In this document: positions 1,143-16,917 of the stretch, one piece after another
Layout of the letters: each line of letters starts with the position of its first letter
Position numbering within the stretch: the stretch's first letter is position 1
Source of the DNA: a virus
Lineage: Duplodnaviria > Heunggongvirae > Uroviricota > Caudoviricetes
Virus record (IMG/VR): IMGVR_UViG_2630968397_000004
Strand: one strand, 5' to 3'
DNA length: 17,408 bases
Notes under the pieces: model-generated
The model's input: only the letters and a program-made list of their open reading frames with translations
Told to the model about the DNA's origin: nothing
Databases searched by the model: none
Made by a program: the position numbers and the translations under genes

Positions 1143-4100
1143 CTAATAAATAACACCCGTATATATCAGCGTATTATCCAGGGTCGTTCGGTTATAAATT
1201 TCAGCACCGTTTTTCTTCACTATCAGGCGGCATGACGAATAAATATTGTTATTCTTCCGCTCATGTTTAGCACCGCGAAACGCCACCGCGGGAATAACAA
1301 TTTGCCGATCAAACGGCTGATCGTCATAAACCCTGACGGTAATGGTCCCTGATGGCCACCTCTCCGGTGCCCGGGAGTCCCGTGGGAAAGGTTTGCCCAC
1401 TGTTTTAACGAGATCGCCTTCAATCTGGTTCGCGGACAATTTTCCCAGAACCCGACAGTTCTTATTAATCGTGACGTTGTTGAGCGTCCCGGAGTTCGCG
1501 TTCACGTTACCGCTGATATCGGCATTTTTCGCCGTCAGCCGTCCGCCAGGTGTCAGGGAAAATGCCGGAGGATTACCGCCGCTGGTAATGGTCGGAGCCG
1601 TCAGGCATTTCAGGAACACGTCGTTCATGAATATCTGATCGCCCTGACCAACAAACATCGGCTTTGTGTTGCCATTCGCAGGATTAATCATCGCAATCCT
1701 GTCTGCCGCCAGCAGCACCTGACTCTGCATTCCTGCTGGCGTATTCTCAATACCGGCACCGATACCCGCAATATAAAGGCGTCCGTCCTTCATCTGTTGC
1801 AGCTTCACAGCCCACATGCTGTTCAGGTTATTATTTGTATCAACCTGAACTTTCTGTATCTGCTGGATTGCAGCACTCTGATTTTCCAGTTTTTTATTGA
1901 CGGTTTGCGTGATTTCATTGCTGACATTCGTAATGGACGTCCTGATTTCAGTCAGGTCCGGCGCAAGCTGACCGTTATCAATCTGCGTCCACAACTCCTT
2001 GCCGAGATGCGTTTTATTGATCAACCCTTTATAAAAATTCAGATAACCTTCTGCATCATCGCTCGCCCGACCGATGGCCTCCACAAATGCCGATTTGCCA
2101 ACGGTGTTCACACTGCGAACGTAAAAATAATAATCATGGCCCGGCCTGATATTGATACTGGCGGCTATCCAGTACAGCGCCGTGCCAAGATAGCGGGCGC
2201 TGGTTTCAACCTGCCTGATATCCGCAATCCGCTTTTCCGAAAACCAGAACTCAAACTGCACCGTCGGGTCATATACAGCCAGTTTCGGGACCGCCGTTAT
2301 CTGAAAATACCCCGGTATCAGTTCAATAGTGACAGGCGCTGCCGGTGCCGCAATCCGGAACGATACCGACGCCGGATCGCCCTGCTGCCCCCGGGCATTT
2401 ACCGCCCGGACTGTCAGACTGTAATTCCCCAGCGCCAGCTGCCTGAAGCGGTATGTGGTTTCCGTCGTCCTGGCTGTGCTGACCAGCCGCTCACTGCCGT
2501 CGTCCGCTGCCACGGTCAGGCGAAGCAGGAAGCTCACACCCTTCACCACCTTCGGCGTGTCCCATCGCGCCAGCACCTGATATTCCCCGCTGTCTGCGGT
2601 GACTTCGGCGGTCAGATGCTGCACCGCTGGCGGCGTGACACCATTCACCGTGCCGCGCCGGTCACCGTCAAAGTGTGCCCCGTTATCCACGATGGCCTCT
2701 TTTTCCGGCACATGCTGCACGGCGGTGATGGCATACGTGCCGTCGTCGTTCTCACGGATACTCACGCAGCGGAACAGACGCTGGCGCAGCGTCGGCAGCT
2801 TCAGCCCCCACACGCTGTATTCTGCAACGCCGTCAGGAACCCGGCTCACTTTCACCTTCACGCCGTCGGTGACGGACTGGACCTCCACGCTGACCGGATT
2901 GCCACTTCCGTCAACCAGGCTTATCAGCGTGGTACCGGAGGACGGCAGCGTGATTTCACGGTCGAGCGTCAGCGTCCGGGTCTGGCTGTTCACCGCCAGT
3001 ACGCGACCACCGGTGCTGATACCGGCATAATCATCATCGCAGATTTCAATGACATCACCCGGTACATGGCGAAGCCCTTCTGCGCCCACGCTGAAGTCCA
3101 CGGTCTGCGTTTCCAGCAGTTCCGTTTTAATCAGCCACAGCCCGGCTCGGTGTGCCTGCCCCCGGCTGGTACAGCCAAAGGCATCCATCTTCGTGACATT
3201 ACGACCGTAACGGGCAATGGCCTGCGTATCCTCCACAAGCTCTGTCGCCGTCTCCCAGCCGTTATCTGGGTCAATCCAGTTCACCTCAACGGCATTATGG
3301 CGGTCCTTCAGGGCGCTGAAGCTGTAGCGGAACGGCGCGCCATCGTCCGGCATCACCACATTACTGCGGTTATAGGTCCACACCTTATCCGACGGTCGGT
3401 CCTGCACGAACGTCAGCATCTGTCCGTTCCATACCGGCATACAGCGCATCGCCGAGCAGAAATCACTGAGAACATCCCACGCCTTACGCTGTGTGGTCAG
3501 GTAAGAGTTACAGGTGATGCGCGGCTCCGTGCCGCCAAATCCGTCCGTCACTGACTGGTCGCAGTACTGGCCGATGACATACAGCGCCCATTTGTCCACA
3601 TCTGCCGCACCAAGACGTTTCCCCATGCCGTAGCGCGGATGAGTGAGCATGTCCCACAGACACCAGGCCATGTTGTTGCTGTATGCTGGCTTAAGCGTTC
3701 CGTCCCAGATACCGCTGTATTGCCGCGTCTGCGGGTTATAGTTCGACGGCACCTGCAGAATGCGCCCGCGAAGATGATAATTGCGACTCACCTGCTGGTT
3801 ACCGAACTGCTCTGAATCCACCTGCACGCCGACCAGCGCCGTGTTCGGGTAGCACTGTTTCACATCGATGATTTCGGTGTACGACGACCAGAGCGTTTTG
3901 TTCTGCAGCTGGTCTGTGGTGCTGTCCGGTGTCATCCTGCGCATCCGGATATTAAACGGGCGCGGCGGCAGGTTACCCACCACCACCGAGGCCAGATACT
4001 GCGAAGTGGTTTTGCCCTTAATGGTGATGTCTTTTTCCGTCACCCAGCCACCGTTACGCTGTATCTGAACCAGCAGGCGGACTTCCGACGGATTCCGGTC

Positions 4101-4484
4101 ACCCTTTGAGGTGGTTTCCACCAGTGCCTGCACACCGAAGGTCAGGCGCAGACGGTCGATGTTTGCCGACGTGATGGTCCGGGTGATCGGCGTGTCATAT
4201 TTCACTTCCGTACCCAGCACCGTCTCGGAGCCGGAGGATTCAAAACCCTCCGGCGGTGTCTGCTCCTGCTCACCTGCACGGAACACCACCGTAACACCGG
4301 AAAAGTTTGTCTTCCCCTCGCTGTCCAGGACCGGCGTACCGTTCAGCAGCACGCTTTTTAATCCATCCACCGGACCGTCAACCGGCCCTTCGCTGATGGC
4401 ATCAATCACACTCAGCAACTGCGTGGATTTCAGGTTGTCCTTCGCTTCGCGCGGGGTATGCCCCTTACTGCTGCCTTTACCCAT
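1143..4484 (-). CDS. J: lambda J-like host specificity protein / central tail fibre (1113 aa)
   Basis: ORF track 1113 aa starting [34 protein letters not shown]..., recognised as lambda gpJ over most of its length. GAGG Shine-Dalgarno 4 nt upstream of ATG. Sits downstream of I as in lambda. Confidence 0.93.
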
Positions 4485-5831: not shown

Positions 5832-6530
5832 TTACTGAGAAAGTTTATTGATGGAAAGGAAACCGCCGAAATTACCGGTATTGTTGCGCAACTCACACCC
5901 GCGCATACACTTGCTGCATTTGTCCTTCCGGATATCCGTCGTTGGTTTGTCGAACTCGTCAGCCACTGCCCTGCCCGTGTAACCACACTCATCAGAACGG
6001 TAAGTCCACATACAGGTATTCGCCAGCATGATACGCCCCGGGAAAACCGCGCCATCCGTCTCCGTTGGTGTGGCCAGCACAAAAGAGGCACTGACCGCGC
6101 TCAGTTCGCTGCACTGCTCGATGCGCCAGCGGCTGATCACCTCCTGTTCCGGATCGGCGTCGCTGTTTCCGTTGACGAAGTTCACCGCATCCAGAAAACG
6201 GGCGTAAACCTTACGCCTGACCACCGTTCCGCCGACCAGACTCTGCAGGTCTTCCGCCATCCCGGTGACCATTCCGTGCAGGTTAGAAACCGTCAGTGTC
6301 GGACGGGCAGCACTGCCCTTGCCGTTCAGTTCAAATCCCGTCCCCTGAATGGGGTATGCCTGATACTGCCGCCCCTGCCAGGTAACCGGCTCACCTTTTT
6401 CGTTCTGCTCATTACAGAAAAAATAACGTTCACCACCGACCTCTGTCAGATCGATTTCCCAGAGCACCACCTGGGCTGACTGAGTGAGGCGTGTCGTCTC
6501 ATGATGTGTTTCCTGTGGAATATCCTGCAT
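5832..6530 (-). CDS. L: lambda L-like tail tip protein (232 aa)
   Basis: ORF track protein MQDIPQETHHETTRLTQSAQVVLWEIDLTEVGGERYFFCNEQ... recognised as lambda gpL; same length and gene order as lambda. Confidence 0.9.
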   Translation of the reverse strand: MQDIPQETHHETTRLTQSAQVVLWEIDLTEVGGERYFFCNEQNEKGEPVTWQGRQYQAYPIQGTGFELNGKGSAARPTLTVSNLHGMVTGMAEDLQSLVGGTVVRRKVYARFLDAVNFVNGNSDADPEQEVISRWRIEQCSELSAVSASFVLATPTETDGAVFPGRIMLANTCMWTYRSDECGYTGRAVADEFDKPTTDIRKDKCSKCMRGCELRNNTGNFGGFLSINKLSQ

Positions 6531-6869: not shown

Positions 6870-7208
6870 TACCGGTATGCTCCACTTAACCGGCCACCAT
6901 CACGGGCCTGCTGTTGCATAAAGTCCGCGGCCGCTTTTTTCCCGAGGTCATAAACCACCTTCAGGGCAGCCGGACCTATCTGCCCGTTCGTGCCATCGTT
7001 ATTGATCTCAATGTTGTACTGCGGGGCAAACATCACCATGCCTGAACCACCAGTATCCGCCACACCCCCCAGCTTACCATCAGCACCGCGACGCAGTGGC
7101 AGAATGGCTTCAGGTCCCGCTTCCCCCATCACACCCGCGCCTTTTGCAAAAGCAAAAAACGTCGGACGGTTAACCACCGTGCCACTGTAGCGACTCAAAT
7201 CAGCAGAC
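6869..7208 (-). pseudogene. H: 3' fragment of lambda H-like tape measure gene, truncated by IS600 insertion
   Basis: Reading frame is open from the IS600 left end (7209) down to the stop at 6869 and encodes ...ADLSRYSGTVVNRPTFFAFAKGAGVMGEAGPEAILPLRRGADGKLGG..., a tape-measure C-terminus-like sequence. The track's leading MSVKLRLP residues are encoded by IS600 terminal sequence. Confidence 0.8.
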
Positions 7209-7690
7209 TGAGGTAGCCTGAGTTTAACGGACACTCCTTCCTGAAATAGAATGGCATCAGAAGGAGCTAATAATGAGCAGAAAAACCCAACGTTACTCTA
7301 AAGAGTTCAAAGCCGAAGCTGTCAGAACGGTTCCTGAAAATCAACTTTCGATCAGTGAAGGCGCTTCCCGATTATCTCTTCCTGAAGGCACTTTAGGACA
7401 ATGGGTTACCGCCGCCAGAAAAGGGCTCGGTACTCCTGGTTCCCGCACGGTGGCTGAACTGGAATCTGAAATTCTGCAACTGCGTAAGGCGTTAAATGAA
7501 GCTCGCCTTGAGCGAGATATATTAAAAAAAGCAACAGCGTATTTTGCACAGGAGTCGCTGAAAAATACGCGTTAATCGAACAATGGCGACAACAATTTCC
7601 CATTGAAGCGATGTGTCAGGTATTTGGTGTATCCAGGAGCGGTTATTACAACTGGGTACAGCATGAACCCTCAGACAGAAAACAAAGTGA
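7209..7690 (+). mobile_element. IS600 (IS3 family), truncated copy 1: left 482 bp only
   Basis: Starts with the same TGAGGTAGCCTGAGTTTAACGG terminus and orfA offset (64 nt) as the full-length copy at 15654-16917. Sequence stops matching after ...AAAGTGA, where a second IS600 left end begins. Confidence 0.9.
7273..7575 (+). CDS. IS600 OrfA (100 aa, helix-turn-helix transposase N-terminal part)
   Basis: ORF track; identical to orfA of copy 3. A7 slippery run (TTAAAAAAAGC) near the 3' end where the -1 frame is open. Confidence 0.9.
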   Translation: MSRKTQRYSKEFKAEAVRTVPENQLSISEGASRLSLPEGTLGQWVTAARKGLGTPGSRTVAELESEILQLRKALNEARLERDILKKATAYFAQESLKNTR

Positions 7691-7751
7691 GGTAGCCTGA
7701 GTTTAACGGACACTCCTTCCTGAAATAGAATGGCATCAGAAGGAGCTAATA

Positions 7752-8054
7752 ATGAGCAGAAAAACCCAACGTTACTCTAAAGAGTTCAAAGCCGAAGCTG
7801 TCAGAACGGTTCTTGAAAATCAACTTTCGATCAGTGAAGGCGCTTCCCGATTATCTCTTCCTGAAGGCACTTTAGGACAATGGGTTACCGCCGCCAGAAA
7901 AGGGCTCGGTACTCCTGGTTCCCGCACGGTGGCTGAACTGGAATCTGAAATTCTGCAACTGCGTAAGGCGTTAAATGAAGCTCGCCTTGAGCGAGATATA
8001 TTAAAAAAAGCAACAGCGTATTTTGCACAGGAGTCGCTGAAAAATACGCGTTAA
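7752..8054 (+). CDS. IS600 OrfA (100 aa)
   Basis: ORF track; P21L variant of the other copies. Confidence 0.9.
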   Translation: MSRKTQRYSKEFKAEAVRTVLENQLSISEGASRLSLPEGTLGQWVTAARKGLGTPGSRTVAELESEILQLRKALNEARLERDILKKATAYFAQESLKNTR

Positions 8055-8089
8055 TCGAACAATGGCGACAACAATTTCCCATTGAAGCG

Positions 8090-8729
8090 ATGTGTCAGGT
8101 ATTTGGTGTATCCAGGAGCGGTTATTACAACTGGGTACAGCATGAACCCTCAGACAGAAAACAAAGTGATGAGCGGCTAAAACTGGAGATTAAGGTGGCA
8201 CATATCCGCACTCGCGAAACATATGGAACCCGGCGGCTCCAGACGGAGCTGGCAGAGAATGGCATCATCGTTGGTCGTGACCGACTGGCACGTCTTCGTA
8301 AGGAGCTAAGGCTACGCTGTAAGCAGAAACGCAAGTTCAGAGCGACTACGAACTCGAACCACAATCTGCCAGTTGCGCCAAATCTGCTGAACCAGACGTT
8401 CGCTCCTACAGCACCAAATCAGGTCTGGGTGGCGGACCTGACGTATGTTGCCACACAGGAGGGATGGTTGTACCTCGCAGGAGCAGTCTGGTCTGAAAAC
8501 ATCAATGTCGCGTAAAGGTAACTGTTACGACAACGCTCCGATGGAAAGCTTCTGGGGAACGCTGAAAAATGAGAGCCTGAGCCACTATCGTTTTAATAAC
8601 CGGGATGAAGCCATCTCAGTAATACGGGAATACATTGAGATTTTCTACAATCGTCAGCGTCGTCACTCTCGTCTGGGGAATATCTCCCCGGCAGCCTTCA
8701 GGGAAAAATATCATCAGATGGCTGCTTAA
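8090..8729 (+). pseudogene. IS600 orfB disrupted by the 179-bp deletion (frameshifted; split into 141-aa and 94-aa track ORFs)
   Basis: Track ORFs 8090..8515 and 8445..8729 together correspond to the 272-aa OrfB of copy 3 minus residues IKDVYTCE...DYRVIQ. Confidence 0.85.
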
Positions 8730-8822
8730 AAAAAGAACAAATGGTAGTGTCCGCTATTGCCAGTACACCTCACACTCTATCCAACAAACCACCCACAGTT
8801 AATCGGAATAAAAGCAGAGTGC

Positions 8823-8954: not shown

Positions 8955-9029
<75 letters not shown>

Positions 9030-9032
9030 ATA

Positions 9033-9108
<76 letters not shown>

Positions 9109-9110
9109 GC

Positions 9111-9187
9111 TGGCCCACCACCGAGGACTCGAACCTCGCACCGTCAACTTAGAAGGTTGATGCTCTATCCGGATGAGCTAGTGGTGG
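9111..9187 (-). tRNA. tRNA-Arg (anticodon UCU), 77 nt with encoded CCA
   Basis: Reverse complement CCACCACTAGCTCATCCGGATAGAGCATCAACCTTCTAAGTTGACGGTGCGAGGTTCGAGTCCTCGGTGGTGGGCCA. All four stems pair; anticodon loop CTTCTAA. Confidence 0.75.
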
Positions 9188-9188
9188 T

Positions 9189-9265
9189 TGGTGGCCCTTG
9201 CTGGACTTGAACCAGCGACCTGGCGATTATGAGTCGCTCGCTCTGACCAACTGAGCTAAAGGGCC
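9189..9265 (-). tRNA. tRNA with CAU anticodon, Ile2 (ileX/ileZ-like, lysidine) or Met, 77 nt with encoded CCA
   Basis: Reverse complement GGCCCTTTAGCTCAGTTGGTCAGAGCGAGCGACTCATAATCGCCAGGTCGCTGGTTCAAGTCCAGCAAGGGCCACCA. Close resemblance to E. coli tRNA-Ile2 (GCGACTCATAATCGC core and identical T arm). Separated from tRNA-Arg by 1 nt. Confidence 0.75.
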
Positions 9266-11179: not shown

Positions 11180-11285
11180 GATGCCTCCAGGTTTATAAGT
11201 ACAAACGGTTATATCAACATAGAGACAAAAGGTGATGCTGCCAACTTACTGATTTAGTGTATGATCGTGTTTTTGAGGTGCTCCA

Positions 11286-11561
11286 GTGGCTTCTGTTTCT
11301 ATCAGCTGTCCCTCCTGTTCAGCTACTGACGGGGTGGTGCGTAACGGCAAAAGCACTGCCGGACATCAGCGCTATCTCTGCTCTCACTGCCGTAAAACAT
11401 GGCAACTGCAGTTCACTTACACCGCTTCCCAACCCGGTACGCACCAGAAAATCATTGATATGGCCATGAATGGCGTTGGATGCCGGGCAACTGCACGCAT
11501 TATGGGCGTTGGCCTCAACACGATTTTACGTCACTTAAAAAACTCAGGCCGCAGTCGGTAA
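11286..11561 (+). CDS. insA: IS1 InsA (91 aa)
   Basis: ORF track protein [43 protein letters not shown]... A6C frameshift motif TTAAAAAACTC at 11535-11545. Confidence 0.95.
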
Positions 11562-11983
11562 CCTCGCGCATACAGCCGGGCAGTGACGTCATCGTCTGCG
11601 CGGAAATGGACGAACAGTGGGGCTATGTCGGGGCTAAATCGCGCCAGCGCTGGCTGTTTTACGCGTATGACAGTCTCCGGAAGACGGTTGTTGCGCACGT
11701 ATTCGGTGAACGCACTATGGCGACGCTGGGGCGTCTTATGAGCCTGCTGTCACCCTTTGACGTGGTGATATGGATGACGGATGGCTGGCCGCTGTATGAA
11801 TCCCGCCTGAAGGGAAAGCTGCACGTAATCAGCAAGCGATATACGCAGCGAATTGAGCGGCATAACCTGAATCTGAGGCAGCACCTGGCACGGCTGGGAC
11901 GGAAGTCGCTGTCGTTCTCAAAATCGGTGGAGCTGCATGACAAAGTCATCGGGCATTATCTGAACATAAAACACTATCAATAA
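11480..11983 (+). CDS. insB: IS1 InsB reading frame (expressed as InsAB' transposase by -1 frameshift)
   Basis: ORF track 167 aa; -1 frame relative to insA. Confidence 0.9.
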
Positions 11984-12059
11984 GTTGGAGTCATTACCAA
12001 AAAAACCGCCGAAACGGGTTAAGTGCGGGTGCGTTGAGGATGCCTGACACATCAAAGGT

Positions 12060-12081
12060 GGCGGGAGATTACTCTCCCGCC
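12060..12081 (-). terminator. 9-bp perfect hairpin (GGCGGGAGA-ttac-TCTCCCGCC) 10 nt downstream of the hok stop; putative hok mRNA 3' stem-loop/terminator
   Basis: Seen directly. Followed on the minus strand by ACCTTTGATGTG (moderately U-rich). Confidence 0.45.
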
Positions 12082-12090
12082 TGGTCACTC

Positions 12091-12246
12091 TTACTCTCTA
12101 GATTCGTAGTCTACGAAAACAGCGACCTCCGTCTGGCCGATTCGGATTCGTACCTCGCAGAGGTCTTTCCTCGTTACCAGTGCCGTCACAATGACGGTTA
12201 AACAGATGACGATCAGGGCGATTAACATCGCCTTTTGCTGCTTCAT
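12091..12246 (-). CDS. hok: Hok-family type I toxin (51 aa)
   Basis: MKQQKAMLIALIVICLTVIVTALVTRKDLCEVRIRIGQTEVAVFVDYESRE, recognised as Hok/Gef family (closest to HokD/RelF as recalled). SD AAGGAGAAG upstream of ATG. Track ORF 12091..12303 is the in-frame upstream (mok-like) extension. Confidence 0.85.
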   Translation of the reverse strand: MKQQKAMLIALIVICLTVIVTALVTRKDLCEVRIRIGQTEVAVFVDYESRE

Positions 12247-12420
12247 AGCCTGCTTCTCCTTGCCTTTCGGCACGTAAGAGGCTAACCTACATTTGTGAGA
12301 CATAGATTGGGCCTCAGATTAATGTTAAGCGTCTTGCAGGACGCGTAATGTTAACTGGGGCTTTTCTCTGTCTGCCTTACAGTGACATACCCGAGGCAGA
12401 CAGCCTCAAGCACCCGCAGC
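12247..12420 (-). promoter_or_regulatory. hok mRNA leader with mok-like upstream start and conserved hok/sok leader elements
   Basis: Minus-strand sequence GCTTGAGGCTGTCTGCCTC...GGCAGACAGAGAAAAGCCCC...AGGCCCAATCTATGTCTCAC...TAGCCTCTTAC...GCAAGGAGAAGCAGGCTATGAAG parallels the plasmid R1 hok/sok leader as recalled. Confidence 0.6.
12296..12350 (+). ncRNA. putative Sok-like antisense RNA, antitoxin of the hok locus
   Basis: Plus-strand promoter-like -35 TTGCCT (12260-12265), 17-bp spacer, -10 TAACCT (12283-12288), positioned like the R1 sok promoter. Transcript would be complementary to the mok-like start region. Hairpin GCGTC-ttgcag-GACGC at 12329-12344. Inferred, not proven. Confidence 0.35.
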
Positions 12421-12584
12421 AATCTTACCGACACCGATAAGAAAACGCTATTTTTTATTGCCAGCACCATCTATCCAGGCTAGTTTATCTGCGTCAGAAC
12501 GGCGCAATGCGCTCGCCTGAGATACGTTTACTTGCCATGGTAACAACAGGTAACGGCAATTGCTGTTTCTGTTTTGTTTCCTTC

Positions 12585-12615
12585 AAAAACCCCGGACCAT
12601 CAATCCGGGGTTTTT
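12585..12615. terminator. bidirectional Rho-independent terminator (AAAAA-CCCCGG-loop-CCGGGG-TTTTT)
   Basis: Seen directly: stem 12590-12595 / 12605-12610, A5 at 12585-12589 and T5 at 12611-12615. Lies immediately after the 27-aa ORF stop on the minus strand. Confidence 0.75.
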
Positions 12616-12620
12616 GTTTG

Positions 12621-12704
12621 TTAACCCCAACGGCAAATCGAATACACCACCAGCGCCACCGCCATCGCAATTCCTACCGTGGTGAATGCCTCAGGCCAGG
12701 TCAT
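12621..12704 (-). CDS. 27-aa hydrophobic peptide (MTWPEAFTTVGIAMAVALVVYSICRWG), translationally coupled to the upstream gene
   Basis: Manual translation. ATG overlaps the stop of the DUF551-like gene (ATGA). GGAGGTG 5 nt upstream. Followed directly by the terminator. Below the ORF-track size cutoff. Confidence 0.45.
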   Translation of the reverse strand: MTWPEAFTTVGIAMAVALVVYSICRWG

Positions 12705-13066
12705 TGATTCACCTCCTGCGGTGGTTCCGGTAGCGGCATCCAGTGAGTTGAGCTCTCTACTTCAACGCCGTCTTTGTCCACAAAAGCCATCTTATTCCCG
12801 CCACGAGTGGGGCAAAAAACCTTATCCCAGGAACCGGGGAATACATTCCCGAGATCATCGAGAAGAATCACATCGCAATATTCAGCAGGAACTGCATCAC
12901 TACAGCTTATCCAGCCAGCCGGAGCTACCGGAGAGTTGCCAGCCTTACGCATGGCCATTTCCACGATTTCAACCATATCTCCTGGTGGAATTTTACAAAG
13001 TTGCCCAATACATTTCTGCTGCCTGGCATATTCGAGAATGTGCTCCAGTTTGGTTCGATTAATCAT
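12701..13066 (-). CDS. DUF551-like phage protein (121 aa)
   Basis: ORF track. C-terminal WISCSDAVPAEY...VILLDDLGNVFPGSWDK...THWMPLPEPP resembles the conserved DUF551 C-terminal motif as recalled. Start overlaps the stop of the upstream 221-aa gene. Confidence 0.65.
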   Translation of the reverse strand: MINRTKLEHILEYARQQKCIGQLCKIPPGDMVEIVEMAMRKAGNSPVAPAGWISCSDAVPAEYCDVILLDDLGNVFPGSWDKVFCPTRGGNKMAFVDKDGVEVESSTHWMPLPEPPQEVNQ

Positions 13067-13731
13067 TATTTATCTCCCTTAAGCATGGCAGCGCGGCAGG
13101 CGTTCCAGCCATCAACATAATCAAACGTATTACTATCGTTTGGCCCGATTTCATCCGGCACTATCGGCTCTGGTTGGATAGTGACGTTGGCAAAGGCAGC
13201 ACGCAAACCGGTTTTAATTTCTTCGATTTCATCAGAGCCAAGCGATGAATCTGACAGTGCGTGATGGAATGCGTAAGCCATGTCGTCGTTTACTGCAACC
13301 GGCACTGCCGGCGCTGCGTAAAGCGGTGTTATATCTGCCCGAAAATCACATGCTTTATGCAGTCGTACCCAACACTCAACTTCCGCTTTGTCAAAATATA
13401 TAGCAGTGAACGTATTAGATTCCTGGTCAACTTGAGTAAACGTCACCTTCCACGCTACAGCTACGGCTTTCCATCCATCAGGTTGTCGCATTCGCGGGGC
13501 AGCATAAAGCTCATGCATTCCATCAGGCAGCGAGTGACCCACATACTCACCGAACCCGTCAATACACATGCCCCCATCTTCAACAATGCATTCCGCTACA
13601 GGCTCTGCTTCCAGTGATGCCAGAGCGATAAGCGCCAGTTCACGAATTTCACCGCCGTCTATATCGTCAATATCATCGCGGCCAGAAATGTTAGCCAGCC
13701 ATTGCAGTCGCTCTTTGGTAATAGTGGTCAT
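13066..13731 (-). CDS. hypothetical phage protein (221 aa, acidic N-terminus)
   Basis: ORF track. Start overlaps the HNH stop (ATGA) and stop overlaps the downstream start, so the three genes are translationally coupled. No recognisable family. Confidence 0.7.
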   Translation of the reverse strand: MTTITKERLQWLANISGRDDIDDIDGGEIRELALIALASLEAEPVAECIVEDGGMCIDGFGEYVGHSLPDGMHELYAAPRMRQPDGWKAVAVAWKVTFTQVDQESNTFTAIYFDKAEVECWVRLHKACDFRADITPLYAAPAVPVAVNDDMAYAFHHALSDSSLGSDEIEEIKTGLRAAFANVTIQPEPIVPDEIGPNDSNTFDYVDGWNACRAAMLKGDK

Positions 13732-14746: not shown

Positions 14747-14801
14747 GGTGATGCTGCCAACTTACTGATTTAGTGTATGATGGTGTTTTTGAGGTGCTCC
14801 A

Positions 14802-15077
14802 GTGGCTTCTGTTTCTATCAGCTGTCCCTCCTGTTCAGCTACTGACGGGGTGGTGCGTAACGGCAAAAGCACTGCCGGACATCAGCGCTATCTCTGCTCT
14901 CACTGCCGTAAAACATGGCAACTGCAGTTCACTTACACCGCTTCTCAACCCGGTACGCACCAGAAAATCATTGATATGGCCATGAATGGCGTTGGATGCC
15001 GGGCAACAGCACGCATTATGGGCGTTGGCCTCAACACGATTTTACGTCACTTAAAAAACTCAGGCCGCAGTCGGTAA
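14802..15077 (+). CDS. insA: IS1 InsA (91 aa)
   Basis: ORF track; A6C frameshift motif present. Confidence 0.95.
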
Positions 15078-15499
15078 CCTCGCGCATACAGCCGGGCAGT
15101 GACGTCATCGTCTGCGCGGAAATGGACGAACAGTGGGGCTATGTCGGGGCTAAATCGCGCCAGCGCTGGCTGTTTTACGCGTATGACAGTCTCCGGAAGA
15201 CGGTTGTTGCGCACGTATTCGGTGAACGCACTATGGCGACGCTGGGGCGTCTTATGAGCCTGCTGTCACCCTTTGACGTGGTGATATGGATGACGGATGG
15301 CTGGCCGCTGTATGAATCCCGCCTGAAGGGAAAGCTGCACGTAATCAGCAAGCGATATACGCAGCGAATTGAGCGGCATAACCTGAATCTGAGGCAGCAC
15401 CTGGCACGGCTGGGACGGAAGTCGCTGTCGTTCTCAAAATCGGTGGAGCTGCATGACAAAGTCATCGGGCATTATCTGAACATAAAACACTATCAATAA
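14996..15499 (+). CDS. insB: IS1 InsB reading frame
   Basis: ORF track. Confidence 0.9.
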
Positions 15500-15514
15500 G
15501 TTGGAGTCATTACC

Positions 15515-15540
15515 AACTCATCTTCTGGTTTTATTTCCAT
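15515..15540 (-). pseudogene. 5' portion (start codon and first codons MEIKPEDEL...) of the IS1-interrupted 118-aa gene
   Basis: ATG at 15538-15540 (minus) with AAAGGAGAGGAGC upstream. Joining across one copy of the 10-bp duplication restores a continuous 118-codon ORF. Confidence 0.55.
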
Positions 15541-15717
15541 GCTCCTCTCCTTTGATGCGAATACCAGCGGTAATTGAAGCCTGATAGCTAATTTTACTCA
15601 CAGTACCGCCTCCTGAAATTTCCCCTGATAAAACGCCAGCACGCGCTGCATAGTGAGGTAGCCTGAGTTTAACGGACACTCCTTCCTGAAATAGAATGGC
15701 ATCAGAAGGAGCTAATA

Positions 15718-16020
15718 ATGAGCAGAAAAACCCAACGTTACTCTAAAGAGTTCAAAGCCGAAGCTGTCAGAACGGTTCCTGAAAATCAACTTTCGATCAG
15801 TGAAGGCGCTTCCCGATTATCTCTTCCTGAAGGCACTTTAGGACAATGGGTTACCGCCGCCAGAAAAGGGCTCGGTACTCCTGGTTCCCGCACGGTGGCT
15901 GAACTGGAATCTGAAATTCTGCAACTGCGTAAGGCGTTAAATGAAGCTCGCCTTGAGCGAGATATATTAAAAAAAGCAACAGCGTATTTTGCACAGGAGT
16001 CGCTGAAAAATACGCGTTAA
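15718..16020 (+). CDS. IS600 OrfA (100 aa)
   Basis: ORF track. Confidence 0.95.
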   Translation: MSRKTQRYSKEFKAEAVRTVPENQLSISEGASRLSLPEGTLGQWVTAARKGLGTPGSRTVAELESEILQLRKALNEARLERDILKKATAYFAQESLKNTR

Positions 16021-16055
16021 TCGAACAATGGCGACAACAATTTCCCATTGAAGCG

Positions 16056-16874
16056 ATGTGTCAGGTATTTGGTGTATCCAGGAGCGGTTATTACAACTGG
16101 GTACAGCATGAACCCTCAGACAGAAAACAAAGTGATGAGCGGCTAAAACTGGAGATTAAGGTGGCACATATCCGCACTCGCGAAACATATGGAACCCGGC
16201 GGCTCCAGACGGAGCTGGCAGAGAATGGCATCATCGTTGGTCGTGACCGACTGGCACGTCTTCGTAAGGAGCTAAGGCTACGCTGTAAGCAGAAACGCAA
16301 GTTCAGAGCGACTACGAACTCGAACCACAATCTGCCAGTTGCGCCAAATCTGCTGAACCAGACGTTCGCTCCTACAGCACCAAATCAGGTCTGGGTGGCG
16401 GACCTGACGTATGTTGCCACACAGGAGGGATGGTTGTACCTCGCTGGCATCAAAGATGTTTATACGTGCGAAATTGTCGGCTACGCCATGGGAGAGCGCA
16501 TGACAAAAGAGCTGACAGGTAAAGCCCTGTTTATGGCGCTCAGGAGCCAGCGCCCACCTGCCGGGCTAATCCACCACTCTGATCGAGGTTCACAGTACTG
16601 CGCATACGATTACCGGGTCATACAGGAGCAGTCTGGTCTGAAAACATCAATGTCGCGTAAAGGTAACTGTTACGACAACGCTCCGATGGAAAGCTTCTGG
16701 GGAACGCTGAAAAATGAGAGCCTGAGCCACTATCGTTTTAATAACCGGGATGAAGCCATCTCAGTAATACGGGAATACATTGAGATTTTCTACAATCGTC
16801 AGCGTCGTCACTCTCGTCTGGGGAATATCTCCCCGGCAGCCTTCAGGGAAAAATATCATCAGATGGCTGCTTAA
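16056..16874 (+). CDS. IS600 OrfB (DDE transposase catalytic part; produced as OrfAB fusion by -1 frameshift)
   Basis: ORF track 272 aa. The -1 frame is open upstream back to the A7 slippery run at the end of orfA. Confidence 0.95.
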   Translation: MCQVFGVSRSGYYNWVQHEPSDRKQSDERLKLEIKVAHIRTRETYGTRRLQTELAENGIIVGRDRLARLRKELRLRCKQKRKFRATTNSNHNLPVAPNLLNQTFAPTAPNQVWVADLTYVATQEGWLYLAGIKDVYTCEIVGYAMGERMTKELTGKALFMALRSQRPPAGLIHHSDRGSQYCAYDYRVIQEQSGLKTSMSRKGNCYDNAPMESFWGTLKNESLSHYRFNNRDEAISVIREYIEIFYNRQRRHSRLGNISPAAFREKYHQMAA

Positions 16875-16917
16875 AAAAAGAACAAATGGTAGTGTCCGCT
16901 ATTGCCAGTACACCTCA

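Follow-up and report, generated by a model that had tools for sequence, protein, structure and literature searches.

The window examined here is a stretch of 17,408 nucleotides (nt) from the IMG/VR virus record IMGVR_UViG_2630968397_000004 (Caudoviricetes), and its minus strand carries an open reading frame (ORF) of 27 codons and a TAA stop, running from 12704 to 12621, that translates to MTWPEAFTTVGIAMAVALVVYSICRWG. The original prediction, which did not give the strand, had placed a hydrophobic 27-residue peptide gene at 12621-12704, with a strong GGAGGTG ribosome-binding site and a start codon overlapping the upstream stop, and all of these are present on the minus strand. The GGAGGTG Shine-Dalgarno (SD) sequence (12716..12710, minus strand) stands 7 nt before the ATG and lies inside the last codons (Q-E-V) of the upstream cistron (12701..13066, minus strand), which encodes a 121-residue DUF551-domain protein (PF04448, E = 3.4e-19) and is annotated as such in an E. 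coli locus of 99.7% identity. The ATG of the peptide (12704..12702) and the TGA of the DUF551 gene (12703..12701) overlap as an ATGA on the minus strand (12701..12704), which is a signature of termination-reinitiation coupling; translation of the DUF551 cistron feeds the peptide ORF, and no sigma-70-like promoter site was found in the interval 11900..13200. Beginning 5 nt past the peptide stop, a palindromic, G+C-rich hairpin (12584..12616; a 13-pair stem with 7 G-C pairs, flanked by an A-run and, on the opposite side, by a T-run) has the shape of a bidirectional intrinsic terminator and stands between the phage accessory operon that includes the peptide ORF and a hok/sok locus. Given that the same 1.4 kb holds 28 ORFs of at least 20 residues, the size of this ORF alone does not set it above chance, and it is the comparative evidence that does so.

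We collected homologues from IMG/VR through two independent anchors, namely a pattern on codons 1-7 (the N-anchored set, n = 115) and a pattern on codons 21-28 (the C-anchored set, n = 138), and limited the statistics to codons fixed by no search anchor. Exactly 27 codons followed by a stop are found in 112 of the 115 N-anchored homologues; among the 138 C-anchored copies, 3 are disrupted (one stop codon, two 1-nt deletions) and two further ones show an in-frame deletion of 2 codons. The length variants, comprising this deletion and hexanucleotide expansions, remain in frame. Mean pairwise differences at codon positions 1, 2 and 3 are 0.225, 0.136 and 0.404 respectively over the anchor-free codons 8-19, and the in-frame ratio of nonsynonymous to synonymous differences (pN/pS) is 0.44 over codons 8-27, compared with an average of 0.89 for column shuffles, none of which (0/200) reached so low a value. 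On a minimum-spanning tree built from 59 unique middle segments we counted 65 synonymous versus 52 nonsynonymous single-nucleotide codon changes, a marked synonymous excess relative to the neutral synonymous fraction of 0.30 (p = 5e-9), and the same count in frames +1 and +2 recovers no such excess (p = 0.68 and 0.99). Moreover, sub-families that are about 60% identical in their DNA share both length and key residues. A structured cis-acting RNA element or small RNA finds no counterpart in these data, with no Rfam match to the ORF and no conserved structure over the SD and ORF (RNAalifold consensus of -1.1 kcal/mol, 4 pairs and no meaningful covariation). The balance of synonymous and nonsynonymous change, on which the original prediction had staked its ORF, is of the kind that a coding sequence displays; as far as comparative sequence analysis can establish it, these patterns show purifying selection on the predicted peptide gene, and the ORF is very probably a real protein-coding gene.

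Two ORFs on the plus strand of the same region were considered and rejected: one of 66 residues (12507..12707) runs through the terminator and has a codon-aligned antisense pN/pS of 0.87, i.e. no coding-type constraint, and one of 127 residues (12679..13062) has its start within the peptide ORF and runs antisense to the DUF551 gene.

The mean Kyte-Doolittle hydropathy of the peptide is 2.11 over the 19 residues from 6 to 24, which is enough for one predicted transmembrane helix, as had been anticipated. Across the family the sequence follows the consensus M-[TNS]-W-P-E-A-F-x-x-x-G-[IV]-A-[MI]-A-[VI]-A-[LF]-[VIL]-[VL]-Y-S-[IVL]-[CF]-R-W-G. Counted over 46 unique intact peptides, A15, Y21 and W26 are invariant (46/46), followed by G11 and A6 (45/46 each), E5 (44/46), A17 (43/46), W3 and P4 (42/46 each) and A13 (40/46), and the variable positions swap among I, V, L, M, A and T. 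Aromatic residues occupy both predicted membrane interfaces (W3/F7 and Y21/W26) and thereby bracket a helix of bilayer length, along which the small residues G11/A15 and A13/A17 form two i/i+4 faces; the charges amount to one acidic residue near the N end (E5) and one basic residue near the C end (R25). The traits that define small membrane proteins as a class, namely fewer than 50 residues, a single helix and conserved packing residues, are all found in this 27-residue peptide, and its composition suggests that it would insert into the membrane. Readings as a lipoprotein or signal peptide, or as a secreted signaling pro-peptide, were rejected, there being no basic N-region and no lipobox, with C24 replaced by F in one sub-family.

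Low-GC viral contigs contain distant small ORFs with the MNWPEAF start and a [G/S]-x-A-x-A-x-A core (e.g. MNWPEAFAIVGVAFAVAYLFSHMV and MNWPEAFAYVGIAFAIAWALRNI), which usually have the ATGA coupling too; these members (L015 and others) had no match among GenBank phages. As a separate observation, the variants P0023, P0025, P0026 and P0028 carry in-frame GCGATG/GCGGTG hexanucleotide expansions inside the helix (GIAMAMAMAMAVAL... and GIAVAVAVAVAL...), which stretch the transmembrane segment by 4-8 residues and occur on 3-9 contigs each where checked.

Comparison of the flanks of distinct loci revealed a steep boundary on either side. Mean identity is 0.82 over the ORF and 0.56 over the 20 nt that hold the SD, and drops to 0.35-0.44 further upstream and to 0.30-0.35 from the first base past the stop. 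The 157 loci fall into 24 upstream and 21 downstream classes, which occur in 60 combinations; the alignments thus show a self-contained, sharply bounded unit of about 100 bp, an SD plus 27 codons, that moves between contexts. The start overlaps the upstream stop in 114 of the 115 N-anchored homologues, the long upstream ORF ending on ATGA in 95 and on TGATG in 19, and a purine-rich motif of the GGAGG/GAGG type lies at a fixed distance from the ATG in nearly all of them. Three unrelated C-terminal tails of upstream proteins carry this SD (...PEPPQEVNQ, ...NGLxxVEDILR and ...ENDLKNIEQKVNQ), and the upstream genes themselves vary widely, coding for DUF551 proteins, Ea22-like coiled-coil proteins, a predicted methyltransferase, a dATP/dGTP pyrophosphohydrolase and unnamed proteins. 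On the other side, the largest context class (53 loci) has a hok promoter 8 nt past the peptide stop, 23 loci have a coupled DUF4222 gene, and 10 have another small hydrophobic ORF. At least seven different terminator-like hairpins follow the stop across the family: the window-type hairpin recurs in 15+2 loci, and the other context classes have at least six unrelated hairpins or none. The terminator flank of the original prediction is therefore borne out at this locus and does not extend to the family. Judging from these signals, translational coupling feeds the predicted gene in nearly all cases, and the gene mostly stands at the end of its operon.

Several side observations concern these flanks. 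In L012 and 9 similar viral loci a second hydrophobic ORF, MSDDISLAMEGALAVVAVVGVYCLVVFLMDRLGN (34 residues), lies about 35 nt past the stop of the MNWPEAFAITGV... allele with its own ribosome-binding site AAAGGAGGG, and may encode another membrane microprotein that has escaped annotation. The conserved DUF551 ending ...PLPEPPQEV encodes GGAGGT (12710-12725 in the window; about 2830-2850 in phage 24B, L300), and appears to double as a ribosome-binding site for whichever gene comes next, which is the peptide gene in the window and, in phage 24B, a DUF1382 gene with a GTG start. In the latter phage (HM208303), an annotated 23-residue coding sequence, vb_24B_5c (2840-2911), is the out-of-frame 3' end of the ea22/DUF551 gene (VDNSWCVVETVTLDAATGTAAGG) and looks like a spurious call; the window has this alternative frame open too, ahead of the peptide ATG. 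Further along the minus strand, a protein of 221 residues (13066-13731), which has no Pfam match, ends in ...NDSNTFDYVDGWNACRAAMLKGDK, and the 'EaA protein' of the large phage vB_EcoM_TH18 (L007, 1971-2504), which is directly coupled to a peptide gene, ends in the same motif. This shared ending indicates that accessory modules are common to temperate and large virulent-type coliphages.

The family is widespread. We recovered the 100-nt block of SD and ORF at 2918 places in 1621 of 5426 complete E. coli genomes, with up to 7 per genome. A tblastn search, which had been proposed along with the gene for lambdoid prophages, recovered 94 phage records, including 933W, VT2-Sakai, VT1-Sakai, BP-4795, Min27 and ArgO145, and 180 plasmids (E. 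coli 154, Salmonella 25, Klebsiella 1). Phages of 120-134 kb carry it as well, e.g. vB_EcoM_TH18, which its record classes in Vequintavirinae. Among the plasmids, 174 of the 180 are non-mobilizable, and the majority of those listed measure 90-105 kb, a size which suggests that they may be phage-plasmids. At the equivalent position the peptide is absent from lambda (after ea22), from phage 24B (after vb_24B_6c, an ea22 homologue) and from the yfdS region of the K-12 prophage CPS-53. A degenerate-pattern scan of genome contigs, which returned almost only chance matches (e.g. MTWPEAFLAALPIV in Atopobium), was discarded.

Standard annotation misses the gene, which had been described as unannotated. 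This description holds for the four RefSeq/PGAP loci that we inspected and for the GenBank records of 933W, ArgO145, vB_EcoM_TH18 and VT1-Sakai, in none of which it is called; it does not hold for GenBank as a whole, where the exact 27-residue sequence has been deposited (AOM45384.1 and others, on 79 contigs) as 'bacteriophage protein' or 'hypothetical protein'. At least 1000 contigs carry an annotated 40-residue version of a sister allele, which begins at a spurious upstream start. The peptide is probably below the length cut-offs of gene callers. Searches against the Pfam, NCBIfam, PHROG and PADLOC families gave no match, with only sub-threshold hydrophobic look-alikes: the PADLOC defense models returned no family for two peptide alleles at E <= 1, and the sole PHROG holin match (E = 0.11) was to an artefactually extended variant. 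A sequence search of PDB recovered no relatives, and a HMMER search against 1.84 billion representative proteins recovered 24 matches, all of this same family and most of them owing their call solely to a mutation or a wrong start that had lengthened them, with no informative larger relative. The peptide is a new, uncharacterized family of a known kind, the phage-encoded small membrane protein.

To place the gene in a phage genome we turned to the lambdoid prophage of E. coli FDAARGOS_944, which is 99.7% identical to the segment 12000..13800 of the window. There, on one strand, genes for a cro-like protein, YdaT, YdaU, a DnaC-like ATPase and DUF977 are followed by an insertion sequence (IS), then by a hypothetical gene, DUF4014, HNH, the 221-residue protein, DUF551, the peptide ORF and hok, and finally by DUF1367, DUF1364, DUF1133, tRNAs, holin, lysozyme and a lysis protein. 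This gene order and strand suggest that an accessory block within the rightward early operon ends with the peptide ORF; the genes for holin, lysozyme and the lysis protein lie about 4.2-6.2 kb from the ORF, beyond the nin/Q-like genes and the tRNAs. In the window the terminator is followed by a complete hok/mok/sok type I toxin-antitoxin locus on the minus strand (12091-12415), comprising a 70-residue mok/hok ORF that matches Hok models (12091..12303), the hok gene within it (12091..12246) and an Rfam sok element (12241..12415, 118 bits) that does not reach the peptide ORF.

The prophage in the window has itself decayed. Two direct IS1 copies (11231..12000 and 14747..15516; 770 bp, 99.6% identical), with InsA-like (91 residues) and InsB-like (167 residues) genes matching NF033558, bracket a segment of 2.7 kb with hok/sok, the peptide gene, DUF551, the 221-residue gene, HNH and DUF4014, an arrangement that resembles a composite transposon. 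The copy of the peptide gene in the window may be silent, because the IS1 at 14747 stands between the operon and the promoter and genes upstream of it. IS3-family copies (orfA 100 residues, orfB 272 residues; NF033516) lie at 7203..8772 and 15648..16917, the first of which shows an odd tandem partial duplication (7209-7690 / 7688-8169). The lambda-type tail genes for TipJ (1143..4484) and minor tail protein L (5832..6530, minus strand) adjoin a cluster of four tRNAs (8958-9265) and Q-region genes, and no lysis, terminase or head genes were found between the tail genes and the tRNA/Q region. The prophage is scrambled or deleted, as would befit a Shigella-like genome rich in IS elements; the label multispecies Shigella is given to the exact DUF551 protein, which occurs on at least 1000 contigs.

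Characterized bacterial small membrane proteins act by binding and tuning larger membrane proteins. We propose that the peptide is likewise a single-pass inner-membrane microprotein of 27 residues, nearly all of it transmembrane helix, which would have no promoter of its own and usually close, as the last cistron, a phage operon of early accessory genes of the DUF551/Ea22/HNH/DUF4014 type. Ribosomes ending the upstream gene would restart at the overlapping ATG, aided by the SD in the last codons of that gene, and the peptide would probably be made together with the early accessory genes, early in lytic growth. Once in the membrane, it would pack tightly, helix to helix, with a host or phage membrane protein and so modulate this partner during lytic growth. 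We advance this partner-modulating mechanism tentatively, as a proposition with an even chance, or a little less, of being correct.

Several points weigh against the proposal or the gene on which it builds. The pattern-based collection makes the termini ascertainment-biased, for which reason the statistics were restricted to unanchored codons, and the pN/pS of 0.44 amounts to only moderate constraint. An antisense frame that shares the wobble positions has a similar pN/pS (0.43), as mirroring would lead one to expect; in the window this frame is an incomplete ORF, with only a GTG-started ORF from 12679. The charges are minimal and show no clear positive-inside bias that would point to a topology, and the small-xxx-small faces support self-association into a pore as well as they support packing against a partner. 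The strings MTWPEAF and MNWPEAF were not found in the searchable literature, and the peptide strings are absent from the small-ORF supplements of Huecker 2017 (PMC5597208), Neuhaus 2016 (PMC4765031) and Fesenko 2024 (PMC11188072), a weak negative given that these possibly list coordinates only. The papers on the exo-xis region and Ea22 (PMC8614690 and PMC7093339) mention no transmembrane or membrane protein.

The strongest competitor is a peptide that damages the membrane by forming a pore or depolarizing it, and that would serve as a toxin, as an abortive-infection or host-shutoff factor, or as a holin-like factor in lysis timing. Its size and single hydrophobic helix resemble those of type I toxins of 19-30 residues, the conserved G/A faces could mediate oligomerization, the immediate neighbor of the gene is often a toxin-antitoxin locus (hok/sok or another), and one context class has the second small hydrophobic ORF just downstream. 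However, the peptide shows no similarity to Hok, to holins or to any toxin or defense model, the Rfam sok element stops short of the ORF, and neither a conserved RNA structure nor an antisense element restrains its translation. With a strong, exposed SD and coupling, it would be made whenever the early operon is translated, unlike the known toxins; the lysis cassette (holin, lysozyme and an Rz-like gene) is kilobases away in the intact relative, and no charged or strongly polar residue lies within the helix. The toxin, holin-like or exclusion role suggested by the original prediction is thus unsupported, there being no family match, no place in the lysis cassette, no antisense RNA and no promoter of its own; that prediction was right about the gene and is in this sense partly supported. 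An exclusion gene of the autonomous 'moron' type is likewise not what we find, since the interval searched has no sigma-70-like site, 114 of 115 homologues are coupled and the terminator is not conserved. We consider membrane damage unlikely, and a pore-forming killer less likely than a modulator of a partner protein.

A bolder form of the partner-modulation proposal, which we regard as doubtful, is that the unit is a mini-cassette with two jobs, being at once a minimal transmembrane effector and a portable homology patch for module exchange. The effector would bind a specific inner-membrane machine of the host in early lytic growth, with the DNA-entry channel (as a block to superinfection), a membrane protease or a membrane-bound defense effector as candidate targets, and the patch would be used by lambdoid phages, phage-plasmids and even large virulent coliphages. 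If this is true, the peptides would constitute a new family of microproteins for host takeover by phages, carried by about a third of E. coli genomes and by the Shiga-toxin phages.

The second half of that idea can also be held alone, with the 100-bp block kept mainly as a patch of DNA homology for module swaps and the peptide having little or no function. A sharp island of identity between very diverse flanks (60 combinations at 157 loci) is what a module junction would look like. A recombination linker, however, gives no reason for the third-position bias, the synonymous excess (p = 5e-9), the exact 27 codons and the in-frame indels, nor for island edges that fall at the SD and at the stop codon, nor for sub-families of about 60% DNA identity that share length and key residues. 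It is disfavored by this constraint at the level of amino acids, and we hold it to be very unlikely; probably the block of SD and ORF serves as a recombination junction too, as a by-product.

The same constraint, with its invariant and near-invariant residues, disfavors a role for the act of translation alone, in which ribosomes at the end of the operon would protect the 3' end of the mRNA, prevent premature Rho termination or tune the terminator. That the ORF is most often the last cistron, that it ends a few nt before a terminator hairpin in at least seven unrelated downstream contexts, and that the coupling is highly conserved would all suit such a role. Yet at 23 or more loci a coupled DUF4222 gene comes next in place of a terminator, and at 53 loci the hok promoter does, and we rate this explanation as scarcely probable. 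Least probable of all is a detachable membrane anchor that frameshifting or read-through would attach to the upstream Ea22/DUF551-type protein, a reading for which rare in-frame fusions speak (P0036, 143 residues with a coiled-coil N-terminus, and P0039, 78 residues, from Salmonella) and against which stand the sporadic look of these fusions, on only 1-3 contigs each, the lack of a slippery heptamer at the junction with its three different sequences, and a conserved ATG and SD that a fusion would not need. The same two fusions, seen by themselves, could be a sign that peptide and upstream gene are functionally linked.

The peptide gene is found in about 30% of the complete E. coli genomes, frequently with copies in several prophages of one genome, and also in Stx phages of medical importance (933W and VT1/VT2-Sakai). 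That a phage microprotein should have been overlooked is not in itself surprising; this one is an unusually clean example with strong evolutionary support, and presents a ready target for functional work on small proteins. The coupling has a practical corollary, in that deleting or truncating an Ea22/DUF551-type gene would also alter expression of the peptide, and the sharp island of homology explains the many different accessory modules joined at the peptide site in lambdoid genomes.

Comparison with known systems helps to situate the family. The phage exclusion proteins T4 Imm, HK97 gp15 and P22 SieA are, as the peptide would be, phage-encoded inner-membrane proteins from outside the structural and lysis modules, and T4 Imm is an early lytic gene, as the peptide gene would be. 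They differ in having 80-160 or more residues and extramembrane parts, no similarity to the peptide was found, and exclusion proteins expressed from prophages are autonomous morons with their own promoter, unlike the peptide. Hok/Gef proteins are also small hydrophobic prophage peptides coupled to an overlapping upstream frame (mok in the case of hok). However, they have about 50 residues and a periplasmic, Cys-containing tail, and are silenced by the Sok antisense RNA and long-range folding of the mRNA, whereas the 27-residue peptide matches no Hok model in NCBIfam or Pfam (which the neighboring 70-residue mok/hok ORF does), lies outside sok, and has an exposed, strong SD with no conserved RNA structure. 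The very short type I toxins Ibs (19 residues), ShoB (26), DinQ (27) and TisB (29) are alike in length and in their single hydrophobic helix, and when overexpressed such toxins depolarize the inner membrane. They are stand-alone genes with their own promoters, antisense small RNAs and poorly accessible ribosome-binding sites, and the peptide ORF is the reverse on each count. A further likeness is to the small inner-membrane proteins of E. coli, such as AcrZ, MgtS, MgrB, PmrR, CydX, KdpF and the uncharacterized YohP (27 residues), which have fewer than 50 residues, one helix, interfacial aromatics and small-residue packing positions, and have been missed by gene callers on account of their size. 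The likeness does not extend to sequence, the KdpF match (E = 0.024, 14.7 bits against a cut-off of 26.85) being compositional, and unlike these proteins the peptide is phage-borne, highly mobile and always a distal, translationally coupled cistron.

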